A DNA stretch of 64,000 bases from Candidatus Brennerbacteria bacterium (GTDB lineage: Bacteria; Patescibacteriota; Minisyncoccia; UBA6257; GWB1-50-10), in the NCBI GenBank assembly GCA_016183535.1, contig JACPEK010000004.1, forward strand, positions 73,013 to 137,012, in the 5' to 3' direction. Shown in pieces: positions 4,159 through 37,965 of this stretch (its first letter is position 1; each line of letters opens with the position of its first letter). Both the position numbers and the translations under genes were made by a program. The notes below the pieces were generated by a model that worked only from the letters and a program-made list of their open reading frames with translations, had not been told where the DNA came from and did not search any database.

Positions 4159-5544
4159 ATGGTGGCAATGAACCCTAAGGAACTTTGGAAGGCGACTCTT
4201 GGCGAGATTGAACTGCAAATCTCCAAACCAAACTTCATCACGTGGCTCAAAAACAGCGAACTTATTGAGCGGAACGAGCGCGAAGGGGTGGCGCTTGTGG
4301 GACTTCCTAATAACTTCGCCAAAGAGTGGGTGCGCAACCGTTACCACAAGCTTATTCTCGGATCACTGCGAAATCTCGATAACTCGATACGGAATGTGGA
4401 TTATGTTGTTATCACGGGCGCGCGCGAAGTTCCCGCTCGCGTCGCGGTAAGTAAACCCATCGCCGCTTCTCCGCTCACCGACGAGCACAAACTTCCTATA
4501 AGCGAACTTAAGGTGGATCCGATTACAAATCTCAATCCACGGTACACCCTGGACACCTTCATTGTTGGTTCTTCGAATGAATTGGCATACGCCGCCACAC
4601 AGGCGGTAATCGCGTCCGTTGGTAAAAAATATAACCCGCTGTTTCTCTACGGCGGAGTGGGGCTTGGAAAAACCCATCTTCTCCAAGCAACGGGGAATGC
4701 CATCGCGAGCCATGCCGGCGCAAGAAACCGTGTATTCTATGTCTCCTCGGAAAAATTCATCAATGATGTGGTGTGGGCGGTCCGTAACAAACGTATGGAG
4801 GATATAAAAAAGCGCTATCGCGACGTAGATGTCCTCATTATTGACGATATTCAGTTTATTGGAGGAAAAACCACTACCGAACTCGAGTTTTTTTATACCT
4901 TCAACGCGCTCCACGAACACTCGAAACAAATCATTATCTCCTCGGATCGCCCCCCCGCCGCCATCCCCACGCTTGAAGAGCGTCTCCGCTCCCGTTTTGA
5001 AGGTGGAATGATTGTTGATATAGGGTATCCCGACTACGAAATGCGTCTCGCGATTCTCCGCGCAAAAACCCAAGAACTCGGGGCGTTGCTCGACGGTAAA
5101 ATTCTCGACCACATCGCCGCAAAAGTGCAAAAAAACATACGGGAGCTCGAGGGGGTGTTGAATAAGGTTTTGTTTCTTTCCCAGCACCGCGGCGGCTCAC
5201 TTGATATCAAAAAAATAGACGAAGTTATCAGTGAAACAACTCGCGTGTCTTCAAAAAATGTGAACGCTTCGGATATTGTAAAAACTGTCGCGGAATTTTT
5301 TGAAGTTCCGGTTTCAGATCTCACCAATCGATGTCGGAAACAAGAAGTGGTGGAACCGCGACAGATCGCCATGTTTCTCCTTCGTGACGTGCTCAAACTC
5401 TCCTATCCCCATATCGGAGAAAAATTAGGGAAGCGCGATCATACCACCGCAATTCACGCGTATGAAAAAATCAACAAAGCTTTGAGTCAGAATCCCGCAC
5501 TCAATCAAAAAATTATACTCATTAAAGAACGTGTGTATAAGTAG
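4159..5544 (+). CDS. dnaA: chromosomal replication initiator DnaA
   Basis: Walker A GGVGLGKTHLL, AAA+ box, and a C-terminal DnaA-box-binding HTH. The track ORF starts at TTG 4081; ATG 4159 (MVAMNPKELW) fits the DnaA N-terminus. Confidence 0.9.
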   Translation: MVAMNPKELWKATLGEIELQISKPNFITWLKNSELIERNEREGVALVGLPNNFAKEWVRNRYHKLILGSLRNLDNSIRNVDYVVITGAREVPARVAVSKPIAASPLTDEHKLPISELKVDPITNLNPRYTLDTFIVGSSNELAYAATQAVIASVGKKYNPLFLYGGVGLGKTHLLQATGNAIASHAGARNRVFYVSSEKFINDVVWAVRNKRMEDIKKRYRDVDVLIIDDIQFIGGKTTTELEFFYTFNALHEHSKQIIISSDRPPAAIPTLEERLRSRFEGGMIVDIGYPDYEMRLAILRAKTQELGALLDGKILDHIAAKVQKNIRELEGVLNKVLFLSQHRGGSLDIKKIDEVISETTRVSSKNVNASDIVKTVAEFFEVPVSDLTNRCRKQEVVEPRQIAMFLLRDVLKLSYPHIGEKLGKRDHTTAIHAYEKINKALSQNPALNQKIILIKERVYK

Positions 5545-5696
5545 TGACGCAATTTCTATTCCTATCACCATCTGATCTCCGCGTTATCCACTAACCATAC
5601 AGAATAAAAACTCTAAATTATGCCGCGTGTAAAACAATTTTCGTATTTTCTCCACATATCCACATGTGCTACTAATGCTTCTATTATTTTATAAAT
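5545..5696. other. candidate oriC / DnaA-box cluster in dnaA-dnaN spacer
   Basis: Contains TTATCCACT (5584-5592) and ATATCCACA (5656-5664), which match the DnaA box TTATCCACA at 8/9. AT-rich flanks. Classic dnaA-dnaN location. Confidence 0.4.
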
Positions 5697-6806
5697 ATGA
5701 AAATAGTAGTACTTAGAGAGAACCTGGTTTTCGGACTTTCTGTGGTTGAACGAGCGGTGGGAGTGGGATCTAACCTTCCTATTCTCAAAAACGTGCTCTT
5801 TTCCGCGCACGAGGGAATAATTTCACTCACCGCGACCAACCTTGAAATCGCTGTTACCCACAATATTTCCGGTAAGGTGCTTGAAAATGGAGAAATAACA
5901 TGTCCATTTCAAATTTTGAATGCTGCGATTAAAAACGTGGCGGCGGAGCGGATTGCGCTTGAACAGGTGGGGAAAAAACTTGCCGTTAGCACCGATAACT
6001 ACGACGCTCAAATTCAAACACAAGATCCAAAAGAATACCCCCTTATTCCCTCGGTGCAGACTTCCGCTCCGACGGTATCGCTTGACGCCGCTTCGCTGAC
6101 CCACGCGCTTTCGAGTGTGATTGTGGCAACCCAATATACCGATATCCGCCCGGAAATAAGCGGTGTACTTTTCAGATTTCACGAAGAAGGATTAACACTT
6201 GTGGCAACCGACAGTTTCCGGCTCGCAGAATTCCGCTTAGTGAATAAGGGAGTGGTGGGTGGCGGTATAGACGCGATCGTCCCGCTCCGCGCGGCGGAAG
6301 AGGTATTGCGTATTATTCAAACAGAAGAAAGCGGTTCTTTGGTGGAAATCACTCTCGAGCCGAATCAGGTCCTTTTTAAAACTTCCCGCACACGGCTTAT
6401 TTCGCGTCTTATCGATGGCCGTTTCCCGGAATACCACGCGATCATCCCGAAAGAGGTGAAACACGAAGCGGTGATCGCGCGGGAAGAATTTGCCCGTGCC
6501 GTTCGAGCGACGAGTTCATTTGCGGGCCGCGCGAGCGATGTGACGCTTACGGTTTCCGAGAATAAAAAATTTTTAGAGCTTTCATCAAGCGACGCGGCGC
6601 TCGGAGAGGGGCGTTCCCGCGTGCCTATTAAAATAAAAGGGGAGAAATTTTCCGCGGCGTTTAATTGGCGTTACTTCCTTGACGGTCTCAAGATTTACCA
6701 AGGACCGTACGTGAAACTCGGAATGAACGCGCCAGATCGTCCGGTGGTAATAAGCGACCCCGATGCCGCTTATTTAACTTACGTGGTGATGCCGATAAAA
6801 ACCTGA
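5697..6806 (+). CDS. dnaN: DNA polymerase III beta sliding clamp
   Basis: 369 aa. Three-domain clamp with the characteristic start MKIVVLRENL. Immediately downstream of dnaA. Confidence 0.9.
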   Translation: MKIVVLRENLVFGLSVVERAVGVGSNLPILKNVLFSAHEGIISLTATNLEIAVTHNISGKVLENGEITCPFQILNAAIKNVAAERIALEQVGKKLAVSTDNYDAQIQTQDPKEYPLIPSVQTSAPTVSLDAASLTHALSSVIVATQYTDIRPEISGVLFRFHEEGLTLVATDSFRLAEFRLVNKGVVGGGIDAIVPLRAAEEVLRIIQTEESGSLVEITLEPNQVLFKTSRTRLISRLIDGRFPEYHAIIPKEVKHEAVIAREEFARAVRATSSFAGRASDVTLTVSENKKFLELSSSDAALGEGRSRVPIKIKGEKFSAAFNWRYFLDGLKIYQGPYVKLGMNAPDRPVVISDPDAAYLTYVVMPIKT

Positions 6807-6810
6807 TTTG

Positions 6811-9339
6811 CTACCGCTTCGAATAAAATATAACGGTACGTGACGCATTATTTTCTTTTAAGTCGTATATTTTAAGTTCAACTGAATTTTGAGGTTCGAG
6901 GACTACCGGAACGGCGTAGCGATAGAAATACGCGTTCCCCGAGAGTGGAAGCGCGTGAATGAGGCGTCGATTGAAATACAATTCGGCGCGCGCGAGGTTC
7001 GCGCTTCCCGCGCGCAAAGCGGCGGTTACAACGAGCGGGGTGTCCACGAATGACCCATTTTCCGGTTTGAGTTGGTCTATTAAAAGATCACCAGTGGACA
7101 CGGCGGGAGAGAGGGGCGGTAGGGTTTCCGACGAGAAAGAAGCGTTGTCGGAAAGAGGTTTGTTATAAGTCAGTGAAAACCCCTGAATATTCGCGCGTGC
7201 CCACGCGAGCACCGTGTCTTCCCAATTTTGAAACTGCGGGTCGTTTTCTGGATGTGTGGGAATTGGACCTGCGGGATCGTTACGATCGACATAGAAGAGG
7301 ATAGAATGGGCATGCCGAGATATCACACCACCATCCCGCGCCGCGACATCCCACGTCCCGTTCAACATAGGTTTCAAAATTGTCGCGGGCGGTGCGGGGT
7401 GCTCGAAGGGTTCGGGCGCGTATTTTGCGAGCGCCTCTTTTATGAACGCGTGCCATATCGGAACCGCCGCGAGAATACTCGAACCTTGGCGGATCATTTG
7501 TTGGTTGTTGTTGTTACCTGCCCATACGCCGACCGTGAGGAAAGGGGTATACCCGACCGTCCATGCGTCGCGGTGATCTTCGCTGGTGCCGGTTTTAAGC
7601 GCTACCTCGTGATCGGGAAAAATAGTGAGCGCGTTCGAGCTTCTGAAGATTGGATATCTAAGGTCGGGATCGGAAAGGATACGCGTTATTGTCTTTGCCG
7701 CCGCGCCATCGTCGGCGCGCACCGCGTCATCGCGATACTCCTCAAGTACACGTCCTTCGGCGTTCTCCACGCGCAATACGAGTGCTTGCCGATGGCGTAT
7801 TCCGTTTTGAGAGAGCGACGCGTACGCGTTCACTAAGTCAATTAATTTTACCTCCCCGCCCCCTAAGGTGAGCGAGAGGCCATAACGCCATCGCTCCTGG
7901 AGCGTGGTGATGCCATACGCGTGGAGTTTTTTTAACACATTATCGAACCCGGCGAGGTAGAGTGTTTTCACGGCGGGAATATTCAAGGATTCGGCGAGCG
8001 CACTCTGCATTTTTATTGGGCCGCGAGTCGTGCCGTCAAAATTCACGGGGCGGTAGCTTGTGGCGGGGTCGTTTCGCGTATCGAACTCGGTCGGAACGTC
8101 GAAGAGAACTGTTTCCGGCGAATATCCGTTTTCGAACGCGGTAAGGTACACAAAAGGTTTCAACGCCGATCCGGGCTGGCGGAGGCCTTGAATTGCGACG
8201 TTGAAATTCCCTTCGAATTGGCAGGTGAGACCCGGCGTGCACCCCGCTGGCTCCGGAGGAGAGAAATAATCTTTGGATCCGACGAGTGCAAGCACTTGTC
8301 CGGTTTTGGGATCTTGGGCGACGAGCGCGGCATTCGCGCTTCCGTAAAGTGCGAGATTGCGGGCGGAACCGTCGCGCACCGCGATTTCCGCGAGCCCTTG
8401 GAGCTCTGCATCAAGCGTGGTGATAACGCGAAGCCCCCCGCTCTCAACCGCCTCGGCGCCGTACCGTTCAATGAGATATTCTTTGACCGCGAGGGAGAAA
8501 TGGGGAGCAACAATAGTGCCGAGCGAGGGGACGGTAAAAACAATTCTTTCTTTCTTGGCGCGATCGCGTTCCTCGGTACTTAAGGTTCCGAGTTCCGCCA
8601 TACGATCGAGCACGTAATCTTTACGCGCAAGCAAGTCAGCGCTATGAGATCCCCATGGCGAATAGTACGAGGGAGCCTTAAGGAGTGCGGCGAGTGTGGC
8701 CGCCTCGGCGATCGACACCTCCTTGATTGATTTTGCAAAATATACCTGGCTCGCCGCTTCCACGCCATAGGCGTTTGAGCCGTAAGGGATCTGGTTCAGG
8801 TAAAACCCTAATATCTCGTCTTTTGAATATCGCTTTTCAAGCTCTAAGGCGAGAATAAGCTCTTTTATTTTTCTCAAGTATGTTTTTTCAGATGTGAGGA
8901 ACACGTTTTTCGCGAGTTGTTGGGTGATAGTGGAACCACCTTGTACCCTGCGCCCCTCCTTCAGATTTGCGAGGAAGGCCCGCATAATAGCTCGCCAATC
9001 GAACGCCGGCTGTCGATAAAACTCCGCGTTTTCCGCCGCGAGCGTGGCGTTTTTCATATAGTGTGGTATGTCCTCGAACGAAAGGACGGTACGTTTTTCA
9101 AGACCGTGTATTTCGTAGAGCAGATGTTCGCCGGTGCGGTCGTAGAGTTTGGTGGATTGACGGACTTGACGCGCTTGAAATTGGTCCGGCGCGGGAAGTG
9201 ATTGGATGGTGAAAAAAAGCCACGCACCGATCCCTAAGATCGCCGCGAGCGCGATTGAAGCGCTCCAAAATATCCACCACGAGATTTTTTTATGTGGAAG
9301 CGCCGTGCGCCACCTCCCCGCGCCTTTGTACTTATTCAC
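6811..9339 (-). CDS. ponA: class A penicillin-binding protein (transglycosylase/transpeptidase) with long C-terminal extension
   Basis: N-terminal TM. GT51 motifs (EDxxFxxHxG-like, RKxxE) and a transpeptidase SxxK-type region. 842 aa. Confidence 0.85.
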   Translation of the reverse strand: MNKYKGAGRWRTALPHKKISWWIFWSASIALAAILGIGAWLFFTIQSLPAPDQFQARQVRQSTKLYDRTGEHLLYEIHGLEKRTVLSFEDIPHYMKNATLAAENAEFYRQPAFDWRAIMRAFLANLKEGRRVQGGSTITQQLAKNVFLTSEKTYLRKIKELILALELEKRYSKDEILGFYLNQIPYGSNAYGVEAASQVYFAKSIKEVSIAEAATLAALLKAPSYYSPWGSHSADLLARKDYVLDRMAELGTLSTEERDRAKKERIVFTVPSLGTIVAPHFSLAVKEYLIERYGAEAVESGGLRVITTLDAELQGLAEIAVRDGSARNLALYGSANAALVAQDPKTGQVLALVGSKDYFSPPEPAGCTPGLTCQFEGNFNVAIQGLRQPGSALKPFVYLTAFENGYSPETVLFDVPTEFDTRNDPATSYRPVNFDGTTRGPIKMQSALAESLNIPAVKTLYLAGFDNVLKKLHAYGITTLQERWRYGLSLTLGGGEVKLIDLVNAYASLSQNGIRHRQALVLRVENAEGRVLEEYRDDAVRADDGAAAKTITRILSDPDLRYPIFRSSNALTIFPDHEVALKTGTSEDHRDAWTVGYTPFLTVGVWAGNNNNQQMIRQGSSILAAVPIWHAFIKEALAKYAPEPFEHPAPPATILKPMLNGTWDVAARDGGVISRHAHSILFYVDRNDPAGPIPTHPENDPQFQNWEDTVLAWARANIQGFSLTYNKPLSDNASFSSETLPPLSPAVSTGDLLIDQLKPENGSFVDTPLVVTAALRAGSANLARAELYFNRRLIHALPLSGNAYFYRYAVPVVLEPQNSVELKIYDLKENNASRTVIFYSKR

Positions 9340-33428: not shown

Positions 33429-33529
33429 TTTTTCCTCCTTTAGGATTTTTAGTTAAACAAACTCTCTCTGTTCTAGCGGAGAACGCAAAAAGCCGCAAGT
33501 TCACAATCTTGCGGCGGGGCGTTTTTGTG

Positions 33530-33849
33530 TGGTGGACATGCCCGGAGTTGAACCGGGGTGTAACGCGTTTTAAGAAAAGCCCTCTACAAGCTTAGATCTC
33601 TTACGAGAACGAACGGTTCGTAATTTGGCCTTTGGCTACTGAACCTGCCTTACCGAAGGCGAGCCTCAAATATTACACCGGTAAACCCCTATGAAGCCTC
33701 GGGAACCGATGTCCTACTTACGCGAAAGCGTAGGCGGGAGCTGCAACTTTAGAGTTGGCAGTTTTAGGTTTGACCATGGATTTACGAGCGAATGGTCGGC
33801 TCGGCCTGCAAGCTAATCCTATTACACGCTATCAAGGCCCGTCATGCCC
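33530..33849 (-). ncRNA. ssrA: tmRNA (ssrA), about 320 nt. Predicted tag ANSKVAAPAYAFA.
   Basis: 3' end CCCGG-TTCAACT-CCGGG T-arm + CATGTCC + ACCA. 5' end GGGCATG pairs with CATGTCC, giving G3:U70. Resume codon GCC at about nt 91 after an A-rich tract, encoding ANSKVAAPAYAFA-TAA. One gene away from smpB. Confidence 0.6.
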
Positions 33850-33922
33850 TGCCCGCATTGCTACGCTGCGCTTGCAAAGCGTTGCAGGCGGGCCTGCGAA
33901 CTTTGCTACGAGCGTATTGCGG

Positions 33923-34168
33923 TTATTCTTCACTTATTCTTCTTTTTAAATATGCCCTTCCGAAACCTGTCTTTAGTGATTTCTCCCGCGCAACCGCGTC
34001 TTCCATCACATTACAGGCTTCGTAGTAAACTAGCTTAAATGGCCGCCGCGTCTTCGTTGAATTCACTAGCCCGCGGTTGTGCTCTTTAAGCCTTTTCTTA
34101 AGGTCAGCGGTAAAGCCGATGTAGAGCTTTCCGTCTTTCGCACTTTTCAGCACGTAGACGTAATACAT
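33923..34168 (-). CDS. GIY-YIG nuclease family protein (stand-alone, YhbQ-like)
   Basis: YYVYVL...GKLYIGFTADLKKRLKEHN motif. 81 aa. Confidence 0.8.
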   Translation of the reverse strand: MYYVYVLKSAKDGKLYIGFTADLKKRLKEHNRGLVNSTKTRRPFKLVYYEACNVMEDAVAREKSLKTGFGRAYLKRRISEE

Positions 34169-34169
34169 A

Positions 34170-34604
34170 TTAACCAGCTCTCCTCATCTCTCGCTCCGTT
34201 TCCCGCTTTTTAATGACCTCGCGCTTGTCGTGCTTCTTTCTCACTCTCCCGAGACCCAACTCAATTTTTACAAGCGCGCGGTGAGTATACACCTTCACAG
34301 GGACAAGCGTCAAACCACTTTCGAGTTTTCCCGTCAAGTATTTGATTTCGGCGTGCGAAAGAAGTAGTTTTCGCGTCCGGGTGGCGTCATACCCGTCGGG
34401 CGCGTTCCCGGGCTGGAATGAGTGAATAGAGGCCCCTACGAGGTATGCCTCGCCACCCCGCACCACGGCGCGGGACCCCGCGAGGTCCATCCGGCCAAGC
34501 TTTGCGGACTTCGTCTCGTGACCCGTCAAAACCACGCCCGCGGCATATGTTTCCGCAATGTCGTAGTCAAACCGCGCCTGCCTGTTTTCCGATAGCGTTC
34601 CCAT
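34170..34604 (-). CDS. smpB: SsrA-binding protein SmpB
   Basis: Conserved SmpB sequence (NRQARFDYDIAETYAAGVVLTGHETKS...). Confidence 0.9.
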   Translation of the reverse strand: MGTLSENRQARFDYDIAETYAAGVVLTGHETKSAKLGRMDLAGSRAVVRGGEAYLVGASIHSFQPGNAPDGYDATRTRKLLLSHAEIKYLTGKLESGLTLVPVKVYTHRALVKIELGLGRVRKKHDKREVIKKRETEREMRRAG

Positions 34605-34653
34605 ACGATTTCAGCGTATCACACGCCGAAGCCATTTTCCTTATACTGAAGCT

Positions 34654-35310
34654 ATGATTGGAATACCACTAAAGACACTCAAAGTACTTATAGCTCTTAA
34701 TCCCGCGTCCATCGCGCTCACCGGTTCTGCGGGTGGCGGGGAAATGGGGAAGCGTAGCGATGTGGAGGTGGCGATCATCTTTCAAGATAGGAACTATGTA
34801 TCACGCCAAGCCCTTCAACGGTTTACATCACACAAACTGAAAATCTATCCATTCCGTTTGCGGGAGGTACTTACGCTTCGTGCTAAACATCCATTCGCCA
34901 ACAAATTCTACTTTTGGTGGCTTTCCCGCAATTCAAAGACCGTGTACGGGGAGAAGATACTGGAGAATTTGCGGGTGAATTTACACGCAAAAGATTTTAA
35001 TGAAACCATTGATTACGCGCGAGGTGTGGCACTATCAGCTATGGTCTCGCTCCGTAATAAAGACAAGGAAACAGCGAGATGGGGGTTTGCGAAGTCCTGC
35101 CTTTTCGCGACTGCCGCCGCCGTGGGGATGAAAAGAAAGTGTACCCCCAGTTCCTATCGGGAAATCGTGAAAATGGGAGGTGTGGTATTTCCGCGCTGGA
35201 AGCATCTCATACGGAAGGCGGAGAACATGCGGCGTGGGAAGGGGACACTTAGCGAGCAGGATATTTTTGATAACATTGAATACCTCCACTCCATACGGAT
35301 GAGCTTGTAG
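34654..35310 (+). CDS. nucleotidyltransferase-fold (MNT-like) domain protein
   Basis: N-terminal GS...DVEV motif (LTGSAGGGEMGKRSDVEVAIIF). The C-terminal half is unassigned. Its last codons lie inside the 62-bp repeat. Confidence 0.5.
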   Translation: MIGIPLKTLKVLIALNPASIALTGSAGGGEMGKRSDVEVAIIFQDRNYVSRQALQRFTSHKLKIYPFRLREVLTLRAKHPFANKFYFWWLSRNSKTVYGEKILENLRVNLHAKDFNETIDYARGVALSAMVSLRNKDKETARWGFAKSCLFATAAAVGMKRKCTPSSYREIVKMGGVVFPRWKHLIRKAENMRRGKGTLSEQDIFDNIEYLHSIRMSL

Positions 35311-35364
35311 AGGGCTTTTCTTAAAACGCGTTACACTCCGGTTCAACTCCGGACATGTCCACCA
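35303..35364 (+). repeat. 62-bp inverted duplicate of the tmRNA 3' end (T-arm/acceptor/CCA); partner at 33530..33591
   Basis: 60/62 identity in inverse orientation to the ssrA 3' terminus. Confidence 0.8.
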
Positions 35365-35382
35365 AACAACTATAATTAAGAC

Positions 35383-36438
35383 ATGGCGCAGATTAAAGTT
35401 GCTATTGTTGGCGTCGGTAACTGTGCGAAAAGCTTTGTAGAAGGCGTGGGGTTCTATACCAAGAACTCGAGCGACGAGGTTGGCTTGATGCATCCCGAAA
35501 TTGGTGGCTATCGCCCTTCCGACATTAACGTTGTGGCCGCGTTCGATATCGATGAAAGGAAGGTCGGAAAGAAACTCCACGAAGCAATTCGCGCTACTCC
35601 CAATAGAACCGTCAAAATCGCGGACCCTCTAGAGTCAAACGTGATGGTGCAAAGAGGCCCAACGCACGACAGCGTTATTGAGGAGATGCGAGAGCATTTT
35701 ATCCATGAGAGCAAAGAGCCGCCGGTGGACGTTGCGGAAGTACTGAAAACTTCGGGTGCTGAAATCGTAGTGAGCTACCTCCCCACTGGGAGCGACAAAG
35801 CCACCTACGCCTATGCGGAGGCTGCCCTTGCGGCGAATTGCAGCTTTATAAACTGCATGCCGACGCCTATCGCGAAGGATCAAAGCTGGAGGAAGAGATT
35901 TGAAGAGAAGGGACTGGTGCTGATGGGTGATGACATTAAAAGCCAGCTCGGCGCGACCATTCTCAACCGTGTCCTTCTCTCGCTTCTCAAAATGAGGGGA
36001 ATCAAGGTCACAAAGTCAGAGCAGGTGAACTACGGAGGGAACGCGGACCACTTCAATCTCCACTATCGGCCGGAGGCGAAGGAGGCATCCAAGGAAGATG
36101 CGCTGACGAGTGTGCTCAGCGAGGGCGATGCAAAGCCGTCGGCGCGGATGATATATACCGAGAAGAACTATGACCACAAGCAAGCGAAAATAAAGATTAC
36201 GGGAGAAATATGGGGGCACATTCCCATATCTATTGACCTCGCCCTTGAAGATGAGGACAGCCCGAATAGTGCGGGCGTGGTCATTGACGCAATCCGCGCG
36301 GCAAAGGCGCTCATTGATAACGGAGAACATGCGAAAGCAGGAGAAGCCTGTTCGTTTTTAATGAAATCCCCGCCAGTCCAATACTCTGACGAAAAAGCGC
36401 TTGAGAGATTTAGAAAAGTAATTGGGTTGGCGACGTGA
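35383..36438 (+). CDS. ino1: myo-inositol-1-phosphate synthase (bacterial/archaeal short type)
   Basis: KVAIVGVGNCA, NVVAAFDID, VSYLPTGS, GDDIKSQLGATI, DSPNSAGVVIDAIRAAK, LMKSPP. These align motif-for-motif with bacterial Ino1. Confidence 0.85.
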   Translation: MAQIKVAIVGVGNCAKSFVEGVGFYTKNSSDEVGLMHPEIGGYRPSDINVVAAFDIDERKVGKKLHEAIRATPNRTVKIADPLESNVMVQRGPTHDSVIEEMREHFIHESKEPPVDVAEVLKTSGAEIVVSYLPTGSDKATYAYAEAALAANCSFINCMPTPIAKDQSWRKRFEEKGLVLMGDDIKSQLGATILNRVLLSLLKMRGIKVTKSEQVNYGGNADHFNLHYRPEAKEASKEDALTSVLSEGDAKPSARMIYTEKNYDHKQAKIKITGEIWGHIPISIDLALEDEDSPNSAGVVIDAIRAAKALIDNGEHAKAGEACSFLMKSPPVQYSDEKALERFRKVIGLAT

Positions 36439-36455
36439 AACTCCACCATGTCCAT

Positions 36456-36492
36456 AAGCTAAAAACCGCTCTAGAAAAGTGGTTTTTAGCTT
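36456..36492 (+). terminator. hairpin terminator after ino1
   Basis: 12-bp stem AAGCTAAAAACC/GGTTTTTAGCTT with a 13-nt loop. Confidence 0.45.
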
Positions 36493-36509
36493 GAGAACAA
36501 TGCATATTA

Positions 36510-36850
36510 TTGACATATGTATACATTTGTATTACATTGGACAATCCACAGGTAATACAGAACTGTTCTATCCGTATAGTTTATACTGTAGGTAGTAGTT
36601 AGTAGTTGAAGGCAGGTTGTGGAGATAGAGGGAATTAAACCCTCGGAGGCAACTTGATTAGGGCCGCCATCCCCGAACCTGGTATCCCCGTAATCTACCT
36701 TCAACTACTCGCTACGGGTAGCGTTGTTTAATAATTATTTTTTAGAACCCCGTGCTCTGCTGTCGCTAGCTCCCAAAGCTTTTTAGTGGTCTCGACCATT
36801 GACCTGCTTCGGGCGACAGCAGAGCACGACGCTCTAAGGTTTTTAAATCG
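36510..36850 (+). ncRNA. candidate structured ncRNA (unknown class) with sigma70-like promoter
   Basis: TTGACA-N17-TACATT at 36510-36538. Long-range inverted repeats (36600-36612/36697-36708 and 36751-36766/36813-36828). 414 bp non-coding between convergent genes in a dense genome. Confidence 0.3.
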
Positions 36851-36852
36851 TG

Positions 36853-37680
36853 CTACCCCTCTCCCAATTCAAGACTTGAAGAATTAGGAGATTCGCTTTT
36901 AGGAAGATTGTCGGGAAGATGCTTATCTGCAAATTTTCGTAGTTCAGCTCTCAGATTACGCCAGTCGTCGTGTAGCGCCTCGTTATCGCCCTCGAGGATT
37001 TGATCTTTTAGCCCCGAAGGTATATTCAATACCATCCTACCTTCTGCTACGCGTATAGGCGTGAACCCTGCGCGTGTTGCGATTTCTTCCAGCTGTTTGG
37101 AGGTTTGACGAGGCGCTTCATTATTTTTTGCGAGTGAACGAACGGACATCGACGGACGTAATTGTATGTATTGACCGTTTCCCGTATCAGTCATAATACC
37201 AACAAGCTTCGCGTTTTCTTTTACGATTTTCAATGCTTCGTCAGTACGATCTTGCGGAACGCCAAGTTGATTGAGCACGTTCTTCGCGATGTCATCCTTC
37301 GGAAATTTTGAGCCATCGTATTTTTCATAGAAATTCTTTAGTATCTTGGGACGAAGTAGTGCTGTAATCAAACCCTCTTGTCCGACTCCTTCTTCGGTGG
37401 GACTCACAATTTGTCTTCCAAGCGTAGTAAGAGATATGGAGGAAGCTCCGTACGCGTTGTCAGTTATTCCGTAAGCAACTGCCGCCCCAGTTAAAAATCG
37501 CCAACTGGAACTGGTTGGGGAACGATTTATTGACGTTGCCAGGTCAATCGGCGTGGCATTTTTGCTCGCAAAGTTATCTCTAAGTGATTCCGCGAGAGTA
37601 ACTACATCCCTTAACATCGAGCGTGGCATCTCCCCTTGGGACAAACGGCTACTTTTTTTCTCGGCGTTTTCGTTGCTCAT
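36853..37680 (-). CDS. hypothetical protein
   Basis: The track ORF runs to 37929, but the first 83 codons overlap the argS upstream region. Start taken at MSNENAEKK. No motifs. Confidence 0.4.
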   Translation of the reverse strand: MSNENAEKKSSRLSQGEMPRSMLRDVVTLAESLRDNFASKNATPIDLATSINRSPTSSSWRFLTGAAVAYGITDNAYGASSISLTTLGRQIVSPTEEGVGQEGLITALLRPKILKNFYEKYDGSKFPKDDIAKNVLNQLGVPQDRTDEALKIVKENAKLVGIMTDTGNGQYIQLRPSMSVRSLAKNNEAPRQTSKQLEEIATRAGFTPIRVAEGRMVLNIPSGLKDQILEGDNEALHDDWRNLRAELRKFADKHLPDNLPKSESPNSSSLELGEG

Positions 37681-37965
37681 ATTATCTATACGGTAGCTGA
37701 TTACTAGTTTAACTGCAAGGGGCATATTCGGCAATTCGTGGATAGCATAAAGTACTGTAAAAACGCAGTAAATATGGGCATTTTCACTGAAAATCTCAAA
37801 ATCTGGTGATTCGTCTGTTTGAGTTATCCACTCTACTAACCCACCGTTATTTTGTAGAAACCATGCTACAAGTGTCATTTTCCTTTGATTCGTTCTCGCT
37901 TGATCCGCGCGAGAACAGAGTTGCGGCACTATTTATTTACCCTCCCCAGTGCGATAGAGTGAATG

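Follow-up and report, generated by a model that had tools for sequence, protein, structure and literature searches.

An Inverted Copy of the tmRNA 3' End at the Edge of a Variable Zone in Candidatus Brennerbacteria: A Candidate att-Like Scar

Introduction

No genes in bacteria serve as integration targets more heavily than those for transfer-messenger RNA (tmRNA), and island mapping relies on displaced 3' fragments of target genes as its standard marker. The locus described here raises the question of what such a fragment is when it lies inverted, and on the far side of a core gene. In a 64,000-nucleotide stretch from a Candidatus Brennerbacteria genome (assembly GCA_016183535.1, contig JACPEK010000004.1, positions 73,013 to 137,012 of the forward strand; hereafter the window), the 3'-terminal block of the tmRNA gene ssrA recurs in inverted orientation past the neighboring gene smpB, at the end of an open reading frame (ORF) encoding a nucleotidyltransferase (NTase)-like protein. 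The functional block and its inverted copy are called arm A and arm B. The reading favored here, with slightly better than even confidence, is that arm B represents a pseudo-3' end of ssrA, an attachment site-like (att-like) scar that borders an accessory hot spot and owes both its creation and its continued resemblance to the tmRNA to recombination traffic.

Architecture of the Repeat

ARAGORN and the Rfam covariance model RF00023 (E=5.6e-40, full length) both place ssrA at 33530-33849 on the minus strand, in agreement with the boundaries proposed in the initial annotation, with the encoded tag ANSKVAAPAYAFA*. An inverted repeat search pairs arm A (33525-33592) with arm B (35302-35369) over 68 nt at 96% complementarity, 65 of the 68 positions being identical (BLAST E=2.7e-27); the repeat, first described as 62 bp long, is real, extends beyond that length, and shows the same layout in relatives. 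It comprises the last ~63 nt of the tmRNA gene and 5 nt of flank, the 63-nt 3' fragment itself occupying 35302-35364. Arm A consists of the P2 3' strand, the T-arm CCCGG-TTCAACT-CCGGG, the acceptor strand and ACCA, and arm B displays the T-arm TCCGG-TTCAACT-CCGGA. Base-by-base comparison discloses three mismatches, (i) 33529/35365, just beyond the CCA; (ii) 33557/35337 (C/T); and (iii) 33541/35353 (G/A), the last two forming both sides of the first T-stem pair, which changes in a compensatory manner from C-G in the tmRNA to U-A in arm B. The two arms are the only copies of the tmRNA 3' block in the window.

Arm B overlaps the final two codons and the stop codon of the 218-aa NTase ORF, whose TAG at 35308-35310 (AGC TTG TAG) falls within it, just where the copy had been placed at the outset. 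The interval of 1.7 kb between the arms comprises the tmRNA body, a GIY-YIG ORF, smpB, and the NTase ORF, and it follows directly from this layout that an inversion between the arms would flip 33593-35301 and rejoin the tmRNA body to arm B with the gene intact.

What the Arms Bracket

The initial annotation had considered the bracketed block as a possible element. The loci of relatives, designated below by L numbers, were retrieved via NTase and SmpB homologues, and the segment of the window from 30 to 41 kb was compared with all of them by BLAST. The common gene order is clpB - NUDIX - L20 - L35 - IF3 - tmk - ssrA - smpB - variable zone - argS - Na/Ca exchanger - ileS. Homology to the relatives extends to 34623, just upstream of smpB, and resumes at 37930, in the argS promoter; in L018, which has no zone, only 9 bp separate the equivalents of these two positions, and the promoters of smpB and argS stand back to back. 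The content of the zone comprises (i) the NTase, arm B, a gene resembling inositol-3-phosphate synthase (Ino1-like), a tRNA-like element, and a low-GC orphan ORF in the window; (ii) the NTase, arm B, and four small ORFs in L002; (iii) the NTase, a relic of the arm, and an IS30-like transposase in L007; (iv) a SIR2-like gene in L016; (v) a HATPase/DUF4325 gene in L022; and (vi) ORFs without assigned identity in L021, and it is different again in L017. Judged by synteny, ssrA and smpB are core genes: each relative fetched has them between tmk and argS, those that lack arm B (L016, L018, L021, L022, and L023) among them. The accessory part consists of the NTase and arm B and continues to the right of the latter.

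Because homology to all relatives covers tmk, ssrA, and smpB, the latter two are not cargo. A mobile or hairpin-ended element spanning 33530-35364, or an island with inverted attL and attR sites, with the GIY-YIG ORF, smpB, and the NTase as its cargo, is accordingly difficult to sustain as first proposed, and is regarded here as highly improbable. Such an element would explain the inverted terminal copies that bracket the block, and the GIY-YIG ORF and the NTase are each sporadic; nevertheless, the synteny comparison that had been suggested as a check finds smpB and ssrA together, with neither the NTase nor the second repeat, in the five lineages just listed, and nothing was found that speaks for hairpin ends. 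As originally noted, the block contains no integrase, the GIY-YIG, SmpB, and NTase proteins being the sole products encoded between the arms according to Pfam, and no transposase either; the neighbors of the syntenic L002 locus likewise contain no integrase domain. Of the initial interpretation, the link to att-site or inversion biology is reasonable, whereas the notion of an element bracketed by the arms is not borne out.

The same conclusion emerges from comparison with Islander, which looks for a tRNA or tmRNA gene (tDNA) with a same-orientation fragment, the 3' fragment being downstream of the tDNA, a tyrosine integrase gene between them, and sporadic DNA of 2-200 kb (PMC4383910). An intact tmRNA gene and its cognate terminal fragment do share one replicon in this case. 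However, the arms are inverted, the 3' fragment lies past the ssrA 5' end and smpB, just the three genes above separate the tmRNA from the fragment, none of them an integrase, and ssrA-smpB is present in all relatives, in an interval that falls below 2 kb.

In principle, the same picture could arise if a repeat in this metagenome-assembled genome had been collapsed or mis-joined, and L001, a Logan unitig of an independent run, has its breaks exactly within both arms. Such breaks are expected for any repeat of length k or longer, and the junction between the NTase and arm B, together with both arms, recurs in other strains and samples that were assembled independently (L002 and L009; L007 and L008; L013), making an assembly artefact extremely improbable.

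Recurrence and Conservation of Arm B

A tmRNA-3'-like sequence is located 3' of the NTase stop in every NTase-bearing lineage, that is, in four lineages besides the window. In L013, with an NTase 84% identical, arm B matches that of the window at 66 of 68 positions; in L002/L009 (NTase 75%) it spans 57-65 nt and is just 77% complementary to the resident tmRNA end; and in L007/L008 and L014 (NTase 73-75%) ~22 nt are left, from the T-loop to the acceptor, the T-stem 5' strand being lost. In L017 the NTase is deleted save its last bases (GAGCTAG), and a short relic and a terminator persist. By this distribution, arm B is old and recurrent at one spot, and decayed or freshly tmRNA-like depending on the lineage.

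At four-fold degenerate sites, the NTase genes of the window and L002 are 43% identical and those of the window and L013 are 69% identical, whereas the last 38 nt of arm B are identical at 38 of 38 positions in all three (p~1e-13 versus the 43% four-fold identity of window and L002). Because this identity stands beside such divergence, arm B is, on these alignments, not an orthologous relic under neutral decay; it has been either selected or overwritten repeatedly from a conserved source. Over its inner 35 nt, arm B in turn matches the resident tmRNA perfectly, in a P2 strand that is specific to the lineage.

Exchange of the tmRNA 3' Block

The functional tmRNA genes are themselves mosaic. Alignment of eight tmRNAs, comparing the body with the 3' block, highlights that the window and L022 tmRNAs are 79% identical in the body and 98.5% identical in the last 66 nt. 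Those of L002 and L017 are 94% identical in the body, the essential difference being the T-arm, GTCGG/CCGAC in L002 (T1) versus TCCGG/CCGGA in L017 (T2). T2 is at the same time the arm-B T-arm of the window, L013, and L002 and the functional tmRNA T-arm of L017, and the tmRNAs of the window, L021, and L022 display CCCGG/CCGGG. Nearly all combinations of P2-strand and T-arm types occur across the functional genes and the arms.

The 3' flank and terminator of the window tmRNA (33482-33529) are not homologous to the tmk-side terminator common to L002 (5170-5215), L007, L017, and L018, and beyond the terminator the sequence TTCTCCGCTAGAAC is common to the window and these four lineages. This arrangement suggests that, in the window lineage, the flank was exchanged jointly with the tmRNA 3' block. 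The mosaic identifies the ~66-nt 3' block as an exchangeable unit among the Brennerbacteria lineages compared, and it is the pattern expected from block replacement by block-carrying integrating elements or from recombination with a second copy.

Arm B as a Possible RNA or Selected Element

The initial annotation had recognized that its reading would fall if the copy belonged to a second tRNA-like gene. ARAGORN makes no call at arm B, where a second tRNA-like gene and a two-piece tmRNA gene were both considered and rejected, and the Rfam tmRNA model scores 23 bits (35223-35364) versus a gathering score of 47. A GACATG downstream of arm B overlaps the Ino1 start codon and is not conserved, which counts against a two-piece tmRNA. 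RNAalifold analysis of three arm-bearing lineages yields no conserved 5' acceptor strand for arm B; it returns the T-arm and a 6-bp GGAUAU/AUGUCC helix, in which GGAUAU falls within the invariant EQDIF codons of the NTase and which by the authors' estimate is at chance level (p~0.4). A conserved RNA structure uniting the NTase 3' end and arm B was set aside, since it reduces to the T-arm and this helix. The isolated arm B folds no better than shuffled sequences (z=-0.23).

These results bear on the proposal that arm B is itself a selected element, acting as (i) a processing signal or tRNA-like 3' tail on the NTase transcript; (ii) a decoy for SmpB, alanyl-tRNA synthetase (AlaRS), or an RNase; or (iii) a decoy attB shielding the essential ssrA gene from elements that target it. 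Selection would account for the 38/38 identity across saturated divergence and for the intact T-arm in the window, L013, and L002, and it would fit the constant position of arm B, always co-oriented with the NTase and abutting its stop codon, with variable DNA downstream; in other lineages of the candidate phyla radiation (CPR), moreover, NTase homologues lie just downstream of tRNA-Ala genes. However, an element acting as a tRNA mimic is poorly matched by a sequence with no 5' acceptor strand and with the fold and Rfam scores given above, and the lineages do not behave as selection would have it: the T-stem is lost in L007 and L014 despite an intact NTase, the L017 relic persists without the NTase, and NTase homologues outside Brennerbacteria have no such tail. 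A selected element is therefore considered distinctly unlikely.

att-Like Signatures and Orientation of the Module

Two lineages carry additional copies. In L013, a direct, degenerate copy of arm B and ~17 nt of its flank is located 870 bp downstream (local score 45, with no score above 32 among 200 shuffles). This copy shares homology with the old relic seen in L017 and L014, and together with arm B it has the form of a classical att signature. A search for an NTase remnant within the 870-bp insert gave merely a 10-nt match, which is not significant. In the outgroup L023, whose real tmRNA scores 95 bits with Rfam, two tandem units 173 nt apart lie downstream of the tmRNA (6676-6926, Logan SRR26582958), each containing the terminal 20-28 nt of the gene, a terminator hairpin, and the complement of the T-loop/T-stem/acceptor region in inverted form (TGGTCGGAG[G/T]TGAAC). 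Since the tandem units contain them, inverted copies of the tmRNA end also occur at the real gene in this sister lineage. To the eye, the flank of arm B in L013 is similar in form to the terminators that serve the functional tmRNAs of L016 and L023, which suggests that arm B may have descended from a real 3' end together with its terminator.

A further arrangement is found in L016 (SmpB 94% identical), where the order reads tmk(-), smpB(+), GIY-YIG(+), ssrA(+), the SIR2-like gene, and argS(+). The entire module of promoter, smpB, GIY-YIG, ssrA, and terminator is inverted (4908-7346, Logan SRR22388331), so that the tmRNA 3' end faces the zone and argS; the NTase and the second arm are absent. 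This single Logan contig shows the smpB-ssrA module to be invertible as a whole. The outgroup L023 and all other lineages except L016 display the window orientation relative to argS, and the ArgRS and SmpB trees are star-like and do not polarize the direction of the inversion.

An inverted relative invites the interpretation that the arms are active homologous or site-specific inversion sites for a segment comprising the ssrA body, the GIY-YIG ORF, smpB, and the NTase, both arms being under purifying selection for tmRNA function. An intact tmRNA would be regenerated in either orientation, the only difference between the window arms inside the gene is the compensatory T-stem pair, L017 uses the T-arm of arm B as a functional variant, and arm B is conserved well beyond neutral expectation. 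Folding is compatible with such a role, arm B costing 1.6-2.8 kcal/mol when swapped onto the resident tmRNA 5' strand; swapping it onto each of the tmRNAs gave folding-energy differences of 2-6 kcal/mol and no discrimination. Nevertheless, no recombinase gene lies nearby, and the longest unbroken arm-to-arm identity, 35 nt in the window and at most 9 nt in L002, would serve RecA poorly. A site-specific crossover in the T-loop would meet an A/G mismatch in this "overlap" between the two L002 arms. The L016 breakpoints adjoin the terminator hairpin and the smpB promoter, outside the arm positions, in a lineage with neither the NTase nor a second arm, all five arm-bearing lineages share one orientation, and arm B has decayed in L007, L014, and L017. 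Active inversion between the arms is thus judged unlikely.

The broader proposition that arm B is maintained and not merely tolerated, either within an inverting cassette with two functional 3' ends or as a selected decoy landing pad or tRNA-like tail, is doubtful. If true, it would explain both the 38/38 identity of the T-arm and acceptor region beside saturated synonymous sites and the compensatory differences from the resident tmRNA.

Proposed History of Arm B

The preferred reading, a pseudo-3' end refreshed by recombination, may be formulated as follows. Arm B would be a ~66-nt att block, consisting of the P2 3' strand, the T-arm, the acceptor strand, and CCA, at the left edge of a hypervariable zone situated between the divergent smpB and argS promoters. 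It would be both a product and a substrate of recombination at the tmRNA gene and possibly a secondary landing pad. Its origin may lie in an ssrA 3' end that once faced the zone and was followed by re-inversion of the module, or in an inverted duplication. Functional-grade tmRNA 3' blocks would later have overwritten arm B by one of two routes, (a) gene conversion or double crossover with arm A; or (b) integrative elements targeting ssrA, for which arm B would serve as a secondary attB and which would bring in a block of their own. Both window arms would then be recent imports or conversions, and the 96% identity between them would follow from this. Arm B would have no independent cellular function.

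Several observations weigh against this history. The only inversion observed, in L016, includes the terminator, has no arms, and is known from a single Logan contig; because its breakpoints lie outside the arm positions, it is, on this evidence, not arm-mediated. A sequence of flip, integration, and flip would need at least two inversions, because the outgroup and most lineages have the window orientation. Direct, attR-like copies of arm B were found nowhere else in the window or in L002, and no phage or viral contig with the 3' block or the NTase was found, nor was an integrase or an attP-bearing phage or plasmid; the sole viral match, L015, is an unrelated high-GC contig and was discarded. 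Finally, the arm-B T-arm is perfectly conserved in three lineages and in each of them differs from the resident tmRNA T-arm by compensatory changes only, a pattern that selection on arm B itself would explain equally well.

Other Features of the Locus

The coordinates of the features discussed in this work are collected in Table 1.

Table 1. Features of the ssrA-argS region in the window, with positions numbered from its first nucleotide
Feature	Position	Strand	Evidence
Intrinsic terminator 3' of the tmRNA	33492-33515	-	
Arm A, functional tmRNA 3' block and 5 nt of flank	33525-33592	-	
ssrA (tmRNA)	33530-33849	-	ARAGORN; Rfam RF00023, 103 bits
GIY-YIG domain-only ORF, 81 aa, between smpB and ssrA	33923-34168	-	Pfam, 8e-18
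smpB, core gene	34170-34604	-	Pfam SmpB, 1e-41
Variable accessory zone, smpB promoter to argS promoter	34624-37929	.	BLAST synteny; junction sequences
NTase, 218 aa, first gene of the variable zone	34654-35310	+	
Arm B, inverted pseudo-copy of the tmRNA 3' block	35302-35369	+	
Inositol-3-phosphate synthase-like (Ino1-like) gene	35383-36438	+	Pfam; NCBIfam TIGR03450
tRNA-like element, 73 nt	36617-36689	-	Rfam tmRNA, 29 bits, under gathering score; fold
Orphan ORF, up to 358 aa, low GC	36853-37929	-	

The NTase (NCBI HYU81_01950) gives a weak Pfam NTP_transf_2 match, below cutoff. An AlphaFold2 model with a mean predicted local distance difference test (pLDDT) score of 87.7 predicts an ANT/KNTase/HalB-like fold, comprising an N-terminal Pol-beta-type NTase domain and a helical C-domain, and Foldseek retrieves AAD(9) (6sxj), AadA, KNTase, and HalB of the Hailong system (9dbj), with E~5e-6 and 12-18% identity. 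The NTase and HalB are of similar length and share the predicted fold (Foldseek E 5e-6); on the other hand, sequence identity to the ANT/KNTase enzymes and HalB is confined to the range above, Pfam and NCBIfam scores are below cutoff, and the NTase has neither a PADLOC match nor a HalA-like partner. PADLOC annotation of the zone genes for defense systems gave nothing significant.

The gene is a rare accessory gene, with seven clusters found. In other CPR phyla its homologues are not beside ssrA, and scans of genome and metagenome contigs with the NTase alignment added distant homologues only, unlinked to ssrA. Some homologues are located just downstream of a same-strand tRNA-Ala gene, in Doudnabacteria, Falkowbacteria, and a metagenome contig (L005/L006, 5342-6657 in L005; L010, 5804-6624; L012, 2490-3116). 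The Brennerbacteria NTase likewise adjoins an alanine-accepting end, that of the tmRNA; this parallel may be a coincidence, because no flanking tRNA fragments were found. Repeats of tRNA fragments around the NTase homologues of other CPR lineages were looked for specifically, and there were none.

The GIY-YIG ORF matches homing-endonuclease entries of PHROG and is present in three of nine lineages (the window, L007, and L016), where the gap between smpB and ssrA measures 320-408 nt; it is absent from L002, L017, L018, L021, L022, and L023, with a gap of 1-39 nt. This distribution marks it as a sporadic insertion in its own right, placed between the stop codon of smpB and the 5' end of ssrA. 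It looks like an insertion of the homing-endonuclease type, and the nuclease could be a source of double-strand breaks at the ssrA locus.

On the other side of arm B, the Ino1-like gene (8.5e-95 against TIGR03450, under the equivalog cutoff) starts 18 nt past the arm, with a TATAAT in between and no terminator between the two in the window. BLASTN finds no match to the Ino1-like stretch among the fetched loci of relatives. The tRNA-like element follows in a part of the zone with low guanine-cytosine (GC) content (0.42-0.47 in the GC profile). Its 7-bp acceptor stem reads GGGGAUA/UAUCUCC, with G3:U70 and A73, its T-arm reads GAGGG-UUUAAUU-CCCUC, its "anticodon" stem is long, and its 3' end is CAA instead of CCA. 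ARAGORN makes no call on it, and no copies were found in viral contigs or the fetched loci. The orphan ORF has no Pfam, PHROG, NCBIfam, or PADLOC match, and its true start is probably later than annotated, because the annotated 5' end overlaps the argS promoter region.

Comparison with Known Systems

A literature search found nothing specific on inverted ssrA fragments, and the locus is best compared with three better known phenomena. The first comprises switches of the Hin/Gin/Fim type and repeat-mediated inversions, with which the locus shares inverted repeats around a segment whose inversion is tolerated structurally, and a relative, L016, with the module in the opposite orientation. In contrast to these switches, there is no recombinase in or beside the segment and no orientation-dependent promoter or ORF fusion, and the one observed inversion uses other breakpoints.

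The second is the concerted evolution of repeated RNA-gene segments by gene conversion. The match between the inner 35 nt of arm B and the resident P2 strand, despite an ancient junction between the NTase and the arm, has this character; nevertheless, only a gene fragment is involved, and the arm B T-arm has not been homogenized.

The closest comparison is with tDNA integration, in which the target gene is regenerated from an element-borne fragment and the native fragment is displaced (PMC4383910). Arm B resembles displaced fragments in that (i) it is a 3'-terminal ssrA fragment, from P2 and the T-arm to CCA; (ii) it lies beside variable accessory DNA, in lineages whose functional tmRNA 3' ends are mosaic; and (iii) L013 and L023 contain extra direct fragments, located at arm B in the former and at the real tmRNA in the latter. 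It differs in being inverted and upstream of ssrA, past smpB, with no integrase. The DNA enclosed by the arms is core, and the variable DNA is found beyond the pair, on the downstream side of arm B. An island search with an orientation filter would discard a fragment of this type. At this locus a fragment of "forbidden" geometry, inverted and located upstream of smpB, is retained across a CPR genus, and its sequence follows that of functional tmRNAs rather than decaying. The inverting-cassette or decoy interpretation, if true, would represent a novel means of shielding an essential RNA gene from mobile elements. Under the preferred reading, arm B probably works like, and derives from, tDNA att fragments, and the locus would offer a compact natural case of the creation, refreshment, and possible exploitation of pseudo-att sites in very small genomes.

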